The notes beneath the pieces are model-generated. The model was not told the DNA's origin. It saw only the letters and a list, made by a program, of their open reading frames with translations, and did no database searches. Position numbers and translations under genes: made by a program. From assembly GCA_964505635.1 (NCBI GenBank), contig CAZDIP010000002.1:37736-101735 (forward strand): 64,000 bases of DNA, in the 5' to 3' direction. This document shows positions 3,932 through 59,448 of the stretch, piece by piece. Every line of letters starts with the position of its first letter. Positions within the stretch are counted from its first letter, which is position 1. Source of the DNA: an uncultured Candidatus Saccharibacteria bacterium. Lineage in GTDB: Bacteria; Patescibacteriota; Doudnabacteria; UBA920.

Positions 3932-3983
3932 AATATTTTCTCCTTAATTAATACTCTGAAAGTAATTTTTAACAAATTACTGC

Positions 3984-4250
3984 TTAATTTGTTGCTAATA
4001 AAACTGCTATAAATATCAACGGGATAACAACAATAAATACTAGGATATTAGAAATTAACTTAAACCATATTTTATTTGTGCTATAGCTATTATTAAATAA
4101 CAAACTTACCGCAACAGATAATGCCAGCATCACAAAAGTGAAAAAAGAATCTAAATGACTCTTAAAGTAGCTATCATTTACCGAAAAAGTCCAAATAAAT
4201 CCGGTTAAATATACTATTCCTGAAACTATAGCAATGAATTTTTGAATCAT
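3984..4250 (-). CDS. Small integral membrane protein (hypothetical)
   Basis: 88 aa, two to three hydrophobic helices; lies between grpE and dnaK. Confidence 0.35.
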   Translation of the reverse strand: MIQKFIAIVSGIVYLTGFIWTFSVNDSYFKSHLDSFFTFVMLALSVAVSLLFNNSYSTNKIWFKLISNILVFIVVIPLIFIAVLLATN

Positions 4251-5319: not shown

Positions 5320-6075
5320 TTATTTAATCATAAAAAATATAAAAATCGCAGCGCCTCCCCCAATTAACTTAGATATATATTCAAGCAGACTCATATTCTT
5401 CTCGTACTTCATACTCTTAGGCCCCACCACGCCAATTACGCCTTTTTTGCCGCTTGGCAATTGCAAACCTGAAACTACCATAGAGTAATCGCTATTTTTA
5501 GACAATGTAATTTCTTTTCCTATTTTGGCTTCCGGGCCCTTACCTGTATATTCCTGCATCATTTTTTCCGCGTGTTCGTCCAAATGGTCAAAAAACTGGG
5601 CAATCTCCTTTGCGTCTTCGGCCGGCAAATTCGGACTGTTTAAAATATTGGAAATTCCCACGGAAGAAACTTCGTCCGGGAAAAGCGCGAAACCTCCGGC
5701 TCCTGAATGTTCAGAAACCAACTTAGCCAAACGCCTGCCCATTTCCATATGAACTACCTGCAATTTAGCCAACTCCCTCTTAAGCCTATCCTGTTCCTGC
5801 AAAGTCAGTTTAACTTTATCCATTAACTGGTTTACAAAATACCGAAAACCTTTGTCGGTCGGGATACGGCCGGCAGAAGTATGCGGCTGCTGAATATACC
5901 CCATTTTTTCCAATTCCTGCATTTCGTTCCGAATGGTCGGCGCGGAAATGCCAAAATGGTACTTTTCAGCAAGCTCCTTACTGCCTACCGGTTCGCTGTT
6001 TTCGCAGTGCTCTTTAACAATAGCAGCCAGTATTTTTGCCTGCCTTTGGGATAATTTATTATCACTGTCTTGCAT
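5320..6075 (-). CDS. hrcA: Heat-inducible transcription repressor HrcA (short form)
   Basis: 251 aa; N-terminal winged-helix segment LSQRQAKILAAIVKEHCENSEPVGSKELAEKYHFGISAPTIRNEMQELEKMGYI is typical of HrcA; leads the grpE-dnaK-dnaJ cluster. Confidence 0.85.
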   Translation of the reverse strand: MQDSDNKLSQRQAKILAAIVKEHCENSEPVGSKELAEKYHFGISAPTIRNEMQELEKMGYIQQPHTSAGRIPTDKGFRYFVNQLMDKVKLTLQEQDRLKRELAKLQVVHMEMGRRLAKLVSEHSGAGGFALFPDEVSSVGISNILNSPNLPAEDAKEIAQFFDHLDEHAEKMMQEYTGKGPEAKIGKEITLSKNSDYSMVVSGLQLPSGKKGVIGVVGPKSMKYEKNMSLLEYISKLIGGGAAIFIFFMIK

Positions 6076-54766: not shown

Positions 54767-55478
54767 AAGCCTAAAAGACCAGGTGTTAACGGCCATTGAA
54801 ACCGGCCAAGTAAAAATGAAGCCTAAAAGCTATTTTGTGCTAAAAGGCTTGTTAATGGCTATAGGCACGGCCATTGTCTTTTTGGCGCTACTTTATTCTT
54901 TAAGTTTGGTAATTTTTATACTTAAACAAACCGGGGCAGGCTATGCTCCGGGCTTTGGAGCTCCTGGGTTTAAGCAACTTTTTTTCTCCTTACCCTGGTT
55001 GTTAATCCTGCTGTCTTTTGGCTTTATTGTTATTTTGGAAATTTTTGTAAATAGATATGAATTTACTCATAAAAAACCGCTTATTTATACCGCGACCGTG
55101 GTAATTATTTTTGTAATTTTAGGAAGTTATGCGGCACATTCAATGGCTTTGCATTCTATGTTAATGGAAAAAGCCTATAAAAACCAGGTACCCTTTGCCG
55201 GCGCTTTTTACAAAAACTGCTGCCAAAAACCGCATGGCCCGGCCTTTGTCGGACAAATTGTTGAATTTACCGAGTACGGCTATCTAACTCAAGATACGCG
55301 AGGCGACTTAATTAAAGTTTCAGTCACGCCAAAAACTATTTTTCCCTTTGGCAAAGATTTGATGCTCAATGACATAATAGTTGTTTTAGGCGAGCCTCAA
55401 GAAAACTTTATACAGGCTTTGGGAATTAAAGAATTACCGGCATTGCCCCGCGGGAAAATTTTAAGAAAAACGAGATGA
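54750..55478 (+). CDS. Putative membrane anti-sigma factor (hypothetical polytopic membrane protein overlapping the sigma-factor stop)
   Basis: 242 aa; four transmembrane helices; 17-nt overlap with the upstream ECF sigma gene. Confidence 0.4.
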   Translation: MEPTNKSLKDQVLTAIETGQVKMKPKSYFVLKGLLMAIGTAIVFLALLYSLSLVIFILKQTGAGYAPGFGAPGFKQLFFSLPWLLILLSFGFIVILEIFVNRYEFTHKKPLIYTATVVIIFVILGSYAAHSMALHSMLMEKAYKNQVPFAGAFYKNCCQKPHGPAFVGQIVEFTEYGYLTQDTRGDLIKVSVTPKTIFPFGKDLMLNDIIVVLGEPQENFIQALGIKELPALPRGKILRKTR

Positions 55479-55589
55479 AATATTTTTCCGCCTGGCCGGT
55501 AGTAACAATCAGCAAGCCCTAAGGCGACGGCTTTGGGGCCAAAGGTCGCAAATTCAGTCGACTGCCAATAAACATTAACTTAATAAAAT

Positions 55590-56030
55590 ATGAATAAAAA
55601 ATATATTGCTTACGCGATTTTACCGGTCATGGCTTTTGGACTTTTGGGAATAAGCCAGGCTTCTGCCCATGGATGGTTTAAAATGGGAGGCAACTTAACC
55701 CCCCAAGAAATAGCCGACAAACACCAGGCCATGTTCCAGGAGCAGGCTAGCCTGCTCGGACTTAGCATCGATGCCGTAAAAAATGCCTGGTCTGAAGGCA
55801 AAAGTTTAAAGCAACTGGCAAATGAGAATAATATTACCGATGAACAATTAAAAACCAAGTTGCAGGCCGCGGCTAAAGTAAAAATGGGCGAACACTTAAA
55901 AGCATTGGTTGATAAAGGCATAATTACCCAGGCTCAAGCTGACAAACGGCTGCAGCTCATGGAACAGAAAGTGCAGAATAAACAGGGCTTAGGGTTTAAA
56001 ATGGGTCGCCACATGAGTCTTGGTTTTTAA
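55590..56030 (+). CDS. Secreted hypothetical protein
   Basis: 146 aa; signal peptide MNKKYIAYAILPVMAFGLLGISQASA; helical, Lys/Gln-rich. Confidence 0.45.
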   Translation: MNKKYIAYAILPVMAFGLLGISQASAHGWFKMGGNLTPQEIADKHQAMFQEQASLLGLSIDAVKNAWSEGKSLKQLANENNITDEQLKTKLQAAAKVKMGEHLKALVDKGIITQAQADKRLQLMEQKVQNKQGLGFKMGRHMSLGF

Positions 56031-56095
56031 CCAATAATAATATTAAAAGCGCGTTATACCATAAATGCATAACGCGCTTTTAATTTGTCTATTCG

Positions 56096-56596
56096 CTATT
56101 TTTGAACCGTCAACTCTGCTCCCGGAAAATTGTCACAGTAAACTGGAAAGTCCCCTATTTGTTTGGCGGTTACCACTACAAAACCATAAGGCTTAAGACT
56201 AAAAGACTGCGCTCCCACCGCGTACTTATGTGACTTTTCATCGCTATTTTGCAATAACCATTGCGTATTTAATTTAACTACCAAACTGCCGGAAGATTGC
56301 CTGCCGGTGGAACCCCGGCAATTGTTAAAAATCAGACGGTTGGGATATTTTTTTATAGCTTGTTCCAGGGTTAAGGCAGAAGCAGAACCGCTCTTAGTTG
56401 TACTTTGAGTGCTCGTGCTTTCTTGCGGCGCCTTAGTAGGTTCTGGGGTTGTATTGGCCTGTTGTTCCTGGTTTTTTGAAATATTCTCCAAAGTCCGAGA
56501 ATCCTGTTTTTTGTTTTGCCAGACAGCTAGCCCCAGAACTAAAATCACAATCAACCCCACAGCTCCATAAGTATATTTTTTGTCTTTAATTTCCAT
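56096..56596 (-). CDS. Membrane-anchored hypothetical protein
   Basis: 166 aa; N-terminal transmembrane helix, Thr/Ser/Gln-rich linker, C-terminal globular part with Cys pair. Confidence 0.4.
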   Translation of the reverse strand: MEIKDKKYTYGAVGLIVILVLGLAVWQNKKQDSRTLENISKNQEQQANTTPEPTKAPQESTSTQSTTKSGSASALTLEQAIKKYPNRLIFNNCRGSTGRQSSGSLVVKLNTQWLLQNSDEKSHKYAVGAQSFSLKPYGFVVVTAKQIGDFPVYCDNFPGAELTVQK

Positions 56597-56710
56597 ATTT
56601 TTGCTTTAATTATAATCTTGTCTATATTTTAACATATAAAACGAAGCTGTTGATTTTTTCCCCGATTTATGTTAAAGTCATTCAGTATTTGGTATAAAAT
56701 TCGTAAATTA

Positions 56711-56736
56711 TAAATCTATAAATATGGCGCTATCGT
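56711..56736 (+). repeat. 26-bp direct repeat AAATCTATAAATATGGCGCTATCGTC (copy 1) upstream of the GIY-YIG ORF
   Basis: Identical copy at 57030-57055; the second copy spans the 5' end of tRNA-Glu. Confidence 0.85.
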
Positions 56737-56769
56737 CCCACCCTACGAGTGGTCACCCGAAGGGTGATA

Positions 56770-57063
56770 ATGTCTACTAATAAACATATGCATTACGTTT
56801 ACGTATTATGCAGTAGGAATAATAAGTGGATCTATATTGGCTGTACAGATGATTTAAAAAATAGATTTAAACAACACGAGAAAGGAGAAGTATTTTCAAC
56901 TAAAAGCCATAGACCCTTAAAACTAGTTTACTATGAAAGTTATGCCAATAAGGCCGATGCAAGAAGCAGAGAATATAAATTAAAACATCACGGTCAAACA
57001 AAAGAGCTTTTAGTTAAGCAAATAGAAAAATCTATAAATATGGCGCTATCGTCTAATGGTTAG
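56770..57063 (+). CDS. GIY-YIG nuclease-family small protein (start taken at MSTNKHM; the ORF track starts at 56749)
   Basis: HYVYVLCSRNNKWIYIGCTDDLKNRFKQHEKGE...KLVYYESY...REYKLKHHG (GIY...YIG, R, E); the last 11 codons are encoded by the second direct repeat and overlap tRNA-Glu. Confidence 0.7.
   Translation: MSTNKHMHYVYVLCSRNNKWIYIGCTDDLKNRFKQHEKGEVFSTKSHRPLKLVYYESYANKADARSREYKLKHHGQTKELLVKQIEKSINMALSSNG
57030..57055 (+). repeat. 26-bp direct repeat (copy 2) overlapping the GIY-YIG 3' end and the tRNA-Glu 5' end
   Basis: Identical to 56711-56736. Confidence 0.85.
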
Positions 57064-57116
57064 GACAAGTGGTTTTCATCCACTAAATCGGGGTTCGATT
57101 CCCCGTAGCGCTACCA
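57042..57116 (+). tRNA. tRNA-Glu (anticodon TTC), CCA encoded
   Basis: Acceptor GGCGCTA/TAGCGCT; D-arm TCGTCTAATGGTTAGGAC; anticodon stem AGTGG/CCACT with loop TTTTCAT; T-arm CGGGG-TTCGATT-CCCCG; A + CCA. Confidence 0.85.
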
Positions 57117-57236
57117 ATTAAATCCAAGATTACAAACCGCCCGTGGATCGGGCGGTTTTAAAGTTTTCAAAACCGAGGCCAAAGGCAACGGAAAACTTTT
57201 TTGTTAAATAAAAGCAGGTTGCGCTATAATAACGCC

Positions 57237-58127
57237 ATGAATAACAAAAACTACTGGCCTGACCTCTCTTTACTTTTGCTCCAGGTGCTTTGGGGGGCGA
57301 CTTTTTTTATTATCAAATATGCCCAGGATTATATTAGTCCTGTGACTTTATTAGCTTATCGTTTTTTACTTGGTGCAGTTTTAATGGCAGTGTTTCTATA
57401 TTTTATACAGCAGAAACCGTTATTTAAAAATTTCAAAGAAGGTTTTACTCTTGGGTTCATTCTTTGTCTTGCCTATGTTGCTCAAAGCACAGGCCTAGTT
57501 TATATTTCTGCTTCCAATTCAGGTTTCATTACAGGATTATTTGTCGTATTTGTTCCGTTGTTTTCCCTTTTATTTCTAAAAAAAATACCAAATGTAAAAA
57601 ATCTAATAGCCCTAGCTCTATCTGTAGCGGGTTTATGGATTCTGACTGGCGGTGTAGGCCAAATGAACAGAGGAGATCTGTTAACTTTAGTAACGGCGAT
57701 TACAATTGCCATTCATATTCTTTATACCAATAAGCTTATCAAAAATCAGACAGATCCTTATATCCTAAACTTTCAACAGTTATTTACAGTTGGAATTTTA
57801 TGTTTTATTGTTGTTTATATTTTTAAACTGCCATTAAGCATAGGAAGCACTAAGGCCATTTGGGCAATGCTATATTTATCAATTATTGCCGGAGTACTTG
57901 GATACATGATACAAAATTTGGCACAAAAATATGTACCACCTCTAAGAGTATCTTTAATTTTTACTATGGAATCCGTATTTGCAGCTATTTTTGCTTGGAC
58001 GTTGGGTCGTGAGAATTTTGTACCGATTCAAGCATTGGGCGGTTTATTGATTTTTATTGCTATGGTTTTGTCAGAGCTTCCTATAGAAGATTGGATTTTT
58101 AAAAAAAGGAGCGACAACCTTAACTAA
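57237..58127 (+). CDS. DMT-superfamily (EamA-like) transporter
   Basis: About 296 aa from MNNKNYW (ORF track starts at 57201); about 10 transmembrane helices in two EamA-like halves. Confidence 0.75.
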   Translation: MNNKNYWPDLSLLLLQVLWGATFFIIKYAQDYISPVTLLAYRFLLGAVLMAVFLYFIQQKPLFKNFKEGFTLGFILCLAYVAQSTGLVYISASNSGFITGLFVVFVPLFSLLFLKKIPNVKNLIALALSVAGLWILTGGVGQMNRGDLLTLVTAITIAIHILYTNKLIKNQTDPYILNFQQLFTVGILCFIVVYIFKLPLSIGSTKAIWAMLYLSIIAGVLGYMIQNLAQKYVPPLRVSLIFTMESVFAAIFAWTLGRENFVPIQALGGLLIFIAMVLSELPIEDWIFKKRSDNLN

Positions 58128-58279
58128 CTAATACCTGATTAGAAATTAAACTTAACTAAATCTCTTTACCAAAACCCTTTATCCCTCGCGCAAAGCTTGG
58201 TAAGGACATGGTCGGAAAGTCTACCATAAAAAATACTCCTAAAAAGGAGTATTTTTTATGGTAGAATGGAAATTGCCCA

Positions 58280-58585
58280 TTATTTTTGAATGCTAACAGC
58301 AATTAAAATTATTACACCTAAAGCCAGCCAGCCTAAGGTAAACAAAAAAAGTTTAACCGCCTCACTTTTTTGGTTATTTAAATACATTAAAACTGGCTTG
58401 CCTAAAACCAACCCGCCGGTGACGGCCGCGGAAAGCACAAACAGCATTAAAAATGCAATTGGGCCTGTTGCCTTGTCCATTTCGCCAAATATTTTTTCTG
58501 CGTTTTGCATAATAGTCGCGACGCCAGCTACATAAGCCGTGGTTCCTAAAGCGTTAAAAAAACTTCGCAAAATTAAATTATTCAT
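58280..58585 (-). CDS. Small membrane protein (hypothetical)
   Basis: 101 aa, three transmembrane helices. Confidence 0.4.
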   Translation of the reverse strand: MNNLILRSFFNALGTTAYVAGVATIMQNAEKIFGEMDKATGPIAFLMLFVLSAAVTGGLVLGKPVLMYLNNQKSEAVKLFLFTLGWLALGVIILIAVSIQK

Positions 58586-58641
58586 AGTTTGTCAATATAT
58601 TTTTATTAATAAATAACTAAATTGTTTTTATTGTGATACTT

Positions 58642-59448
58642 TTAATTTTGTTTATCTTTACCTTTTAGGCTTTCTTCTTGGCCGCGTTCTTTGAGTTTAA
58701 GATCCAGCCTTATTTTACTCTGTCCCCTAACCTCGCCTTCTTTACCCGACTCCTGTTTTTGAACCGATATATTTAAATCTTGATTAAAAGCGTCTTGGGT
58801 TAATTCCTGTATTTTTTTATTAGCATCTTCTGCTTGTTTCAACTTGCCTTTTTTTTCAAACAGCTCCCTCTCCCTGGTCAACGCCTCCAAAGCCCTGTTA
58901 ATTTGCGCTTCTACTTTTACTTTTAAATTTTGAGTCTGTACTTTTCTTTGCTCTGTTTTTATCTGAGTCTCAGTAAACACGGAACCAGTGGCAATTAAGG
59001 TGCTGGACGGGCCCAAAACTTGAGACGGGGTTATAGTAGGAACAGGTAGCGGTAAAAGGGAGTTATTTTGATTATTAAGCTTGGTAAACTCCGCCATTCT
59101 TGCTTTGGCGTGCCTTAATTCCAAATCGGCTTTTAACGACTGGGTCGGGGCAAGCCTTATTTCCACCTGCTCTTTAAAAATTTTAATGGGATACAACCTG
59201 TCACCCGGAAAAGTGCGCAAAGAGGCCAATACGGTTCCATTGACCATGAAAAATAGAGCCAATGCGCCGGAGGCGAAATAAAAAATTTTAGTATGCCAAA
59301 AACTCACCGAAGCTGCTTTTGGTATGGAAGAAATGCCACTTAGTACCAAAGATTTAATTCTGGCTTTCCGTTCCGCGCTTAAAACCCGTTCATTTTTTAA
59401 AACGGCCAGTTGTTTTATCTCAATCTCATACTTCTTTGTTGAAAACAT
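58642..59448 (-). CDS. Membrane-anchored protein downstream of an ECF sigma factor (putative anti-sigma or sigma-module partner)
   Basis: 268 aa; cytoplasmic N-segment, one transmembrane helix, coiled-coil and charged C-terminal region; 4-nt gap to the sigma-factor gene. Confidence 0.45.
   Translation of the reverse strand: MFSTKKYEIEIKQLAVLKNERVLSAERKARIKSLVLSGISSIPKAASVSFWHTKIFYFASGALALFFMVNGTVLASLRTFPGDRLYPIKIFKEQVEIRLAPTQSLKADLELRHAKARMAEFTKLNNQNNSLLPLPVPTITPSQVLGPSSTLIATGSVFTETQIKTEQRKVQTQNLKVKVEAQINRALEALTRERELFEKKGKLKQAEDANKKIQELTQDAFNQDLNISVQKQESGKEGEVRGQSKIRLDLKLKERGQEESLKGKDKQN

Follow-up and report, generated by a model that had tools for sequence, protein, structure and literature searches.

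How does a nuclease gene come to lie in the 5' part of a tRNA gene and yet leave that tRNA whole? The question is raised by a 64-kb stretch of a Doudnabacteria-like chromosome (the window), in which a short open reading frame (ORF) for a GIY-YIG nuclease of 91 amino acids (aa) ends inside tRNA-Glu(UUC) and is preceded by a second copy of that tRNA's 5' end. The answer favoured here is that the locus is a mobile, tRNA-targeting and target-restoring GIY-YIG mini-element of ~330 bp, seated in the 5' part of tRNA-Glu(UUC). A probability of about 0.6 is given to this reading and a much lower one to any specific mechanism of movement. The window was compared with ~100 loci in Patescibacteria (L001-L103). 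Eighty of these (L004-L083) are genome loci collected by protein pattern alone, and metagenome contigs were scanned with the 3' 48 nucleotides (nt) of the window tRNA-Glu.

The core of the locus, in window coordinates, is made up of the following parts.

56712..56737, + strand: direct repeat copy 1; 14 nt of ORF 3' tail, then 12 nt that are tRNA-Glu nt 1-12
56726..56737, + strand: pseudo-tRNA-Glu stub, nt 1-12 (GGCGCTATCGTC); the same stub is found in L001, L004-L009 and L099-L101
56738..56767, no strand assigned: double hairpin, CCACCC-TAC-GAGTGG then TCACCC-GAA-GGGTGA, between tRNA nt 12 and 13 (covariance model R1)
56768..56772, + strand: TAATG, pseudo-tRNA nt 13-17 past the hairpin; relatives have TAATGG... 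at the same place
56788..57063, + strand: GIY-YIG nuclease ORF, 91 aa, Pfam PF01541 (ATG at 56788, TAG at 57061-57063)
57028..57053, + strand: direct repeat copy 2; ORF codons K81-S88 plus 2 nt, including tRNA nt 1-12
57042..57116, + strand: intact tRNA-Glu(UUC) (ARAGORN; Rfam RF00005, 65.4 bits)

The 26-mer AAATCTATAAATATGGCGCTATCGTC has exactly two copies in the window, 316 nt apart from start to start, and a second match is found in none of 100 dinucleotide-preserving shuffles when up to three mismatches are tolerated. The tRNA contributes 12 of its 26 nt; the remaining 14 are the ORF's own 3' tail (K-S-I-N). The last 22 nt of the ORF (six codons and the stop) are at the same time the first 22 nt of tRNA-Glu(UUC). 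The TAATG after the hairpin is tRNA nt 13-17, so that the upstream copy amounts to a stub of tRNA nt 1-17 interrupted after nt 12 by 30 inserted nt; a spacer of 15 nt separates it from the ORF start. A first-pass annotation of this DNA had already reported the 26-bp direct repeat, which is exact and real, although its positions (56711-56736 and 57030-57055) have to be moved by +1 and -2. It had the second copy supply the last 11 codons of the ORF, where the copy actually runs from K81 to S88 plus 2 nt. It also counted 14 nt of tRNA there, whereas the copy holds 12 (57042-57053) and ORF and tRNA overlap by 22. Its description of the upstream copy as a duplicated tRNA 5' end is correct for the tRNA part, but leaves out the 14 nt of ORF tail and the continuation of the stub beyond the hairpin.

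The protein matches Pfam PF01541 over residues 1-71 (60.2 bits against a cut-off of 22.6, E = 2.4e-16), and Pfam finds no second domain in its 91 residues. Its nearest solved structure is the UPF0213 protein BH0048 (PDB 1zg2, chain 1zg2_A; E = 4.7e-8, residues 2-76), which is why it is classed as a bare catalytic domain of the UPF0213 type. Its length (the range is ~80-110 aa), its single domain and its similarity to BH0048 are those of a UPF0213/YhbQ-type protein. The NCBIfam model for group-I-intron endonucleases gives 19 bits against a cut-off of 56. Residues Y3, Y5, Y16, G18, R26, H30 and E62 are invariant among 27 homologues; their catalytic roles are presumably those established for I-TevI and UvrC. 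Homologues begin MHYVYVL, and the closest ones end ...MALSSNG, the translated 5' end of tRNA-Glu. S82 is invariant throughout the family, including relatives that do not adjoin tRNA-Glu, so that K-S-I is intrinsic to the protein. By annotation the homologues belong to Patescibacteria, Doudnabacteria and related groups. Clustered at 50% identity, the wider family comprises 5,704 clusters at E <= 1e-3 and 454 at E <= 1e-10. An exact-protein look-up gave no record for P0001 or for either of the flanking window proteins.

Association with tRNA genes is common in this family. In the 80 genome loci, 58 of 94 GIY-YIG ORFs lie within 250 nt of a tRNA, every one of them (58/58) on the tRNA's strand. 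Where an ORF is directly 5' of a tRNA, 9 nt or more of that tRNA's 5' end are repeated exactly within the 220 nt before the ORF in 13 of 25 cases, against 0 of 25 control regions. The tRNAs copied in this way are Glu, Tyr, Ser and Asn, and GC-rich hairpin sequence stands immediately after each copy. Overall, the design is found at several tRNA genes across dozens of relatives. The complete order of the window (12-nt tRNA-Glu stub, double hairpin, TAATGG..., spacer, ORF, tRNA-Glu) recurs in L001, L004-L009, L013 and L099-L103. Nearest-neighbour proteins share their label for tRNA type and side in 44 of 66 cases, with 19.8 expected and none of 300 shuffles as high. As far as sequence can establish it, what is demonstrated here is a nuclease gene under selection with a cognate hairpin module, linked to co-oriented tRNAs and accompanied by a second copy of the tRNA stretch between +1 and the hairpin.

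The length of the duplicate is informative. The repeat of nine relatives runs from tRNA +1 (plus 0-3 extra nt) to the hairpin and measures 11, 12, 12, 13, 15, 15, 19, 35 and 38 nt; it is the hairpin's position in the tRNA that sets the length. Their two copies are 295-374 nt apart, but 92 nt apart in the ORF-less L010. The 26-nt repeat of the window is the exception among these relatives, since it carries 14 nt of ORF tail. Because the repeat reaches 14 nt into this tail, the stub must once have been preceded by an element 3' end, and the arrangement indicates a tandem, a re-insertion or a gene conversion in the history of the window. These lengths also bear on another proposal, in which an integrase-mediated element has the 26-mers as its attL and attR, or a transposon produced them by target-site duplication. 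Integrative elements usually have a partial copy of the tRNA on one side and a complete copy on the other (PMC9897764), just as here. Yet the repeat varies from 11 to 38 nt among relatives instead of being fixed, it duplicates the 5' and not the 3' part of the tRNA, the 290 bp between the copies code only for the GIY-YIG ORF, and no integrase or transposase lies within 5 kb. This origin is extremely improbable.

Presence in some and absence from other identical or orthologous targets, as expected of a homing endonuclease gene, is observed. A tRNA-Glu identical over all 75 nt to that of the window is present in the metagenome loci L086, L088, L089, L091 and L093. It is empty, that is without a GIY-YIG gene, in L088/L093 and L091; L087/L084 and L090 are empty too, their tRNA-Glu being a variant with 2 nt differences. 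The identical gene is occupied in its anticodon loop in L086/L094 (ORF 46% identical to the window's), and carries a D-loop hairpin between nt 17 and 18 in L089 (ORF 38% identical). Identical tRNA-Glu genes are therefore occupied at three different positions, in the window, L089 and L086. Occupation between nt 12 and 13 is also found in L092, the same locus as L002, in a tRNA-Glu variant 3 positions off that of the window. A single tRNA-Glu promoter, TTGAWAAA-N13-TTATGGTAAAAT-ATCAAAAGT, is common to five loci, and four of them continue as follows.

L090: 130-nt structured leader, then the tRNA (empty)
L086: leader, tRNA nt 1-35, hairpin, ORF, tRNA
L101: first 25 nt of the leader, heptamer repeats, nt 1-12, hairpin, ORF, tRNA
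L002: 9 nt, hairpin, ORF, tRNA

The right junction at this promoter is always the intact tRNA. Presence and absence at identical and orthologous targets, and several entry positions in one tRNA, are in this way demonstrated by comparison of loci. Directly 5' of the empty tRNA-Glu of L088/L093 stands AAAATCTAATTTT, which may, at a stretch, be the footprint of a precise loss; direct repeats of the window kind would permit such a loss. The closest relatives reached through the neighbouring EamA gene (89% and 81% identity) have a different tRNA or none in the slot, and synteny is not kept.

The first-pass annotation had taken the ORF for a selfish, homing-type GIY-YIG gene inserted at a tRNA with target duplication, and had proposed that related tRNA-Glu loci be compared. 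Both states have now been found (empty in L088/L093, L091 and L090, occupied in L086, L101 and L002), and the pattern it named as contradicting its view, a conserved, syntenic gene with no empty sites, is absent: empty sites exist and the closest relatives are non-syntenic. These results agree with a selfish gene. Because the protein has no DNA-binding domain of the kind found in classical homing endonucleases, site-specific homing by it is something we only infer. The tRNA 5' duplicate does mark an event of insertion, but the 26-mer, with 12 nt of tRNA, is no plain target-site duplication. The early reading is partly supported: right in substance, incomplete, and wrong on this last point.

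The structured leader seen at the shared promoter is an observation in its own right. It spans ~130 nt (CCCAAAAATYAGGAGCGCA...GGRTTTTTGGG) between the conserved promoter and tRNA-Glu in several Patescibacteria, at 8916-9049 of L090 (reverse-complement coordinates) and 3105-3231 of L086, and in truncated form at 894-918 of L101. No Rfam family matches it, and it may represent a small RNA not described before or an element that serves processing.

Could the same arrangement have arisen with no insertion at all? A unit of ORF and tRNA may have been duplicated in tandem under stimulation by the nuclease, as in phages with SegB, and decay of the upstream tRNA would then have left a stub and a 26-nt repeat. 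In phage T6, SegB drives tandem amplification of the tRNA-Tyr and segB unit by way of microhomology that the tRNA 5' end shares with the segB 3' end (PMC13096335), and the window repeat consists of exactly an ORF tail and a tRNA 5' end. Tandem arrays (L007, period 100) and runs of alternating ORFs and tRNAs (L020, L026, L052) are of the kind expected. Among ~100 loci, however, there is no case of two complete tRNAs of the same anticodon around one ORF, and pure duplication and decay is weakened by this lack of fresh full tandem duplicates. Where the extent of stubs was read (the window, L001, L018, L020, L032, L086 and L089), they stop within 5-14 nt past the hairpin. The repeat of the nine relatives begins at tRNA +1 and has no ORF tail. 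In L086, compared with L090, the native leader continues straight into the 5' half-tRNA, and entry inside the gene is therefore indicated. Duplication and decay is an unlikely origin.

There is another alternative. In ORFs of the Glu clade, non-synonymous differences (pN) are 0.17-0.27 per site and synonymous differences (pS) 0.7-1.0, with synonymous sites saturated, a pattern of old divergence and strong purifying selection in these sequences. The ORF might be a host gene that has been domesticated, is inherited vertically and shares its transcripts with tRNAs. A nuclease for maintenance or repair of tRNA loci would be an example, and the stub and hairpin would form a regulatory 5' leader retained by selection. 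This would account for strong purifying selection across saturated synonymous divergence, for the retention of stub and hairpin among anciently diverged copies, and for strict co-orientation with tRNAs. No relatives of the protein were found in IMG/VR or PHROGs, which fits a host gene and leaves a phage origin unsupported. A host gene of this kind is hard to reconcile with identical tRNA-Glu genes that are empty and an orthologous promoter without it, with different entry positions in the same tRNA, with several copies per locus or genome, with the absence of synteny among the closest relatives, and with degenerate 'graveyard' loci such as L008. Contigs also break at these genes: a contig end lies within 500 nt of the GIY-YIG gene in 17 of the 80 genome-contig loci, and the elements appear to break metagenome assemblies. 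Domestication is considered quite unlikely.

The double hairpin is a conserved component of the element in cis. A covariance model (R1), built from 18 hairpin copies, has one strong match in the window (40.0 bits on the + strand and 40.2 bits on the - strand, E ~1e-6), the others giving 15-17 bits (E 0.4-0.8). In most loci, strong R1 matches (24.7-45.3 bits, E <= 0.0045) stand beside a partial tRNA copy or a GIY-YIG gene; the two exceptions among the loci examined are L017 and L024, whose strong matches lack an evident tRNA-derived flank. The motif is [TCNNCC-N3-GGNNGA] twice, that is two adjacent 6-bp stems with 3-nt loops. Covariation was assessed in 12 copies from relatives that were picked by position instead of structure. 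Standard pairs fill 97.9% of pair cells, four pairs have compensatory changes on both sides, the covariation score is reached in 0 of 500 shuffles, and slid controls pair at 35-51%. In stem 1 of the window, the + strand has a C-A mismatch where the - strand has a G-T pair. Two classes of loop are found. In class 1, TNC is followed by GNA, and the copies belong to the clade of the window (ORFs with 48% or more identity to the window's); in class 2, a purine-rich loop is followed by TCN, with ORFs 38-46% identical. Hairpin class follows ORF clade, and each class reads alike on both strands.

Other explanations of the palindromes were considered. One long hairpin does not fit L001, L007b, L008b, L024, L025 and L044, in which each stem is self-complementary yet unlike the other. 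For the same reason, stems that differ while staying self-complementary, a palindromic protein operator is less likely than a folded hairpin. Repair scars like P-nucleotides were rejected, as the palindromes show no relation to the tRNA sequence beside them. The double hairpin could be a substrate for a structure-specific nuclease or an element of the 5' untranslated region.

Within partial tRNA copies, hairpins fall in the D-, anticodon- or T-loop, at these sites.

Between nt 12 and 13: the window; L020 (tRNA-Ser); L025 (tRNA-Arg)
Between nt 35 and 36 or 34 and 35 (anticodon): L086, L007, L013, L010
Between nt 17 and 18: L089
T-loop: L008; L095

A further possibility is that the 30-nt double hairpin is itself the primary mobile unit, a minimal palindromic one, and enters tRNA loops. 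The GIY-YIG protein would be its structure-specific nuclease, in cis or in trans, much as REP sequences relate to RAYT transposases; insertions would be visible only in dispensable partial copies, and the tRNA duplications would be by-products of repair. Hairpins without an ORF do occur beside intact tRNAs (L010, L025, the L007 array of period 100, L008c), one pseudo-tRNA holds two of them (L013), and in L089 the ORF starts ~14 nt beyond the hairpin between nt 17 and 18. The motif is strand-symmetric, with R1 scores alike on both strands, and its stems covary. The nearest solved structure is that of a UPF0213 protein, and the related Slx1 nucleases are structure-specific. Several observations speak against a hairpin that moves first. 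Copies inside a single genome differ from each other (L007a and b, L008a, b and c, L013a and b), unlike those of a recently active family of miniature inverted-repeat transposable elements; the 64-kb window holds a single copy; no hairpin is seen inside a complete, otherwise intact tRNA, so that insertion itself has not been caught; and the flanks of L017 and L024 are a misfit with strict tRNA-loop targeting. We regard this possibility as doubtful.

A more far-reaching version, and quite a long shot, would make hairpin and bare GIY-YIG domain together a mobile system that is minimal and of a new kind. Its structure-specific nuclease would attack tRNA-gene DNA folded as a single-stranded cloverleaf, for example in the displaced strand of a highly transcribed gene, with insertion into its loops. 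The 30-nt strand-symmetric hairpin pair would be the cis-acting end, and the reaction would leave as its signature the 5' tRNA duplicate from the exact mature +1. Bolder still, the transcript of stub plus hairpin might act as a guide-like RNA for the nuclease.

For the target-restoring mini-element favoured here, the following course of events is proposed. (i) The nuclease would break a tRNA gene. (ii) The element would be copied in by repair anchored on conserved tRNA sequence. (iii) It would carry, or create, a duplicate of the tRNA from +1 to the point of entry. Through this duplicate an intact tRNA would be regenerated downstream and a dead stub left upstream, so that an essential gene can be colonized without an intron. 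(iv) ORF and tRNA would be co-transcribed from the tRNA's own promoter; a strict scan calls no internal + strand promoter in the 3' part of the ORF. (v) Since the target is regenerated, re-entry is possible, which would explain the nested or tandem copies of L008, L013, L007 and L052. A speculative corollary is that, where the stop codon lies inside the tRNA, processing of the co-transcript by RNase P would leave a stop-less mRNA and could limit nuclease output.

A number of points weigh against this account. An occupied allele is not immune, unlike in classical homing: the intact tRNA is regenerated, in the window even with 14 nt of upstream sequence. Sequence-specific homing is hard to picture for a 91-aa catalytic domain without a recognizable DNA-binding module, and both the cleavage activity and the target of the nuclease are predictions. 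No orthologous empty site was found for the window's own locus by synteny of the EamA neighbour. Given the saturated synonymous sites of the Glu clade, part of the pattern could be due to elements that have long been inherited vertically and are occasionally lost. Folding of the window hairpin alone is neither exceptional nor significant (z = -0.25 as RNA, -1.5 as DNA); the case for the hairpin rests on comparison between genomes. The left junction at the shared promoter varies, lying upstream of the stub in L101, with the stub missing in L002. This variability fits one anchor of tRNA homology combined with an illegitimate or microhomology join on the opposite side, or a later deletion. The stubs of L004 and L005 mismatch the local tRNA and would not pair with its 3' acceptor strand. 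The first-pass annotation had regarded the stub as host DNA left upstream. The L004 and L005 mismatches and the left junctions of L101 and L002 make this less certain, and the stub may instead be part of the element. L008 points the other way, and the stubs of L006, L007 and L009 co-vary with the local tRNA.

The remaining features of the window unit are a candidate promoter, a tandem tract and a terminator-like hairpin.

56691..56701, + strand: candidate extended -10 promoter of the tRNA-Glu unit (TGGTATAAAAT), found by eye; it resembles the TTATGGTAAAAT of L002, L005, L086, L090 and L101
56704..56723, + strand: 8-nt tandem tract (TAAATCTA x2.6) just 5' of the stub (TRF, score 33)
57134..57158, + strand: terminator-like hairpin, AAACCGCCCG / CGGGCGGTTT followed by TT, which ends the unit (inverted repeat I20); kept upstream of the L095 EamA orthologue

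On the + strand the order is thus promoter and leader, 7-8-nt tract, stub nt 1-12, double hairpin, nt 13-17, spacer, ORF, tRNA-Glu and terminator-like hairpin. A strict sigma-70 promoter scan and a strict terminator scan call nothing for this unit. The genes within 5 kb (an HtrA-like protease, two extracytoplasmic function sigma factors, EamA and TsaD) are housekeeping genes. An Rfam scan of 55000-59000 has the tRNA as its sole significant match, with no intron and tRNA-Glu uninterrupted; Rfam matches in the region together with four related loci are limited to tRNA, transfer-messenger RNA (tmRNA) and a riboswitch, with the hairpin, the tRNA-Ser spacer described below and the structured leader unmatched. 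Tracts of 7 nt (TTCTAAN) similar to that of the window lie at the corresponding site in L099, L100, L101, L005 and L007 (TRF, with low scores of 25-40 over six loci). These short 7-8-nt tracts, of 2-5 units, look like the ORF 3' tail, and could be slippage products of an old tail or binding sites. The terminator-like hairpin is kept before the EamA orthologue of L095 (~2950-2985) despite the different tRNA there; the tRNA in the slot has therefore been exchanged while the flank stayed.

Other loci show what else the family does at tRNA genes. A second and larger clade of ~33 small GIY-YIG ORFs lies 60-170 nt 3' of a co-stranded tRNA-Ser (L035 at 3936-4000, and also L038, L042, L047, L049, L064, L072 and L081). 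Its spacer is GC-rich and conserved (CGCCTTCGCCTCGC...GGCGAGACAAAGTCCGC...GCGAAAGCGGG) and has no Rfam family, and a short copy of the tRNA 3' end (CCGCCTTC) may reappear past the ORF. The tandem array of L007 (3619-4030) has a period of 100 nt and at least three units, with an assembly gap inside; each unit consists of a 30-nt trailer, the double hairpin and the 3' half of tRNA-Glu from the anticodon on. It stands directly 3' of an intact tRNA-Glu bracketed by the inverted repeats ATCTTCCCAGAC and GTCTGGGAAGAT. The 'graveyard' tRNA-Glu locus of L008 (3900-4660) comprises, in order, a stub with hairpin, a first GIY-YIG gene and a 5' half with an anticodon-loop hairpin, then a second GIY-YIG gene (38% identical), a tRNA-like copy with a damaged D-arm, and a T-loop hairpin with a duplicated 3' end; ARAGORN calls no tRNA in this interval. 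L095, by its EamA neighbour (89% identity) the nearest relative of the window, holds a partial tRNA copy with a long GC hairpin in its T-loop, 3' of tRNA-Arg(CCT) (2243-2420), and a different GIY-YIG gene between repeats of the TGTCATTGCGAG...CTCGCAATGACA type (5656-5946). This points to different repeat modules in other branches of the family.

If the target-restoring mini-element is real, Patescibacteria harbour an abundant family of mobile elements of ~0.3 kb for which no earlier description was found. Essential single-copy tRNA genes would be colonized without loss, through a duplicated 5' part. Beside self-splicing introns and inteins, and beside replacement of tRNA 3' ends by integrase-borne elements, this would be a third safe way into a conserved gene, achieved with a 91-aa nuclease domain and a 30-nt hairpin pair alone. 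It would explain the frequent contig breaks and spurious partial tRNA calls in metagenome-assembled genomes of the group. It would also assign a role to some of the very large UPF0213/COG2827 family, provide a compact pair of nuclease and DNA structure that is directly testable in vitro, and extend the relationship of SegB and tRNA from phages to bacterial chromosomes.

Comparison with known systems places the element between several of them. GIY-YIG ORFs occur sparsely in insertion sequences of rRNA genes in bacteria of the candidate phyla radiation, where they were judged unlikely to spread by homing and tRNA is unmentioned (PMC11270868). Hosts at the phylum level are the same, and there too GIY-YIG ORFs sit in stable-RNA genes in a manner that is not intron-like, but the genes are those of rRNA instead of tRNA. 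In the full-text literature, which leaves subscription journals mostly uncovered, no description of small GIY-YIG elements linked to tRNA was found, a result that does not itself prove novelty.

The UPF0213/YhbQ/BH0048 group (COG2827) and the Slx1 catalytic domain are closest in the protein, with the 1zg2 match, a similar size and conserved GIY-YIG residues; no description of tRNA-linked mobility or of a hairpin module for UPF0213 was found in the literature searched. Elements of the I-TevI type share the catalytic fold and the position of the gene within or beside a conserved gene. I-TevI binds an operator that resembles its target and so represses itself, a possible analogy for the upstream stub. 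Here, by contrast, Rfam finds no intron and the tRNA is continuous, the host gene is saved by duplication and not by splicing, and the separate DNA-binding domain of I-TevI and the Seg proteins is missing.

REP/RAYT and IS200/IS605 systems have in common with the element short GC-rich hairpins, conserved in structure more than in sequence, and ORF-less copies beside ORF-linked ones. They differ in using HUH/Y1 transposases without tRNA-loop targeting, whereas the hairpins described here are paired, strand-symmetric and present at one end only.

Tyrosine-integrase elements at tRNA genes (prophages, integrative and conjugative elements, islands; Williams 2002; PMC9897764) likewise restore their target and leave one partial and one complete tRNA copy. 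Entry at tRNA loops and tandem accretion at the regenerated target are also shared. They are 9-120 kb long, encode an integrase and duplicate the 3' part of the tRNA; the window element has ~0.3 kb, no recombinase and the 5' part from +1.

SegB has ~220 aa. It is a GIY-YIG endonuclease of the T4/T6 tRNA cluster and cuts the DNA of tRNA genes (PMC2330249). As in the window, its gene stands beside tRNA genes in the same orientation. Its spread by repair with co-conversion, and its repeats that arise through microhomology of tRNA 5' end and gene 3' end, resemble what is proposed here. SegB has a DNA-binding part, is phage-borne and has no stub interrupted by a hairpin, while the window protein is a 91-aa domain of the UPF0213 type on a bacterial chromosome. 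Phage SegB is the nearest counterpart in function, and the integrase-borne tRNA elements are the nearest in logic. What is probably new here is their combination: a free-standing nuclease of the homing type with target-restoring integration at tRNA genes.

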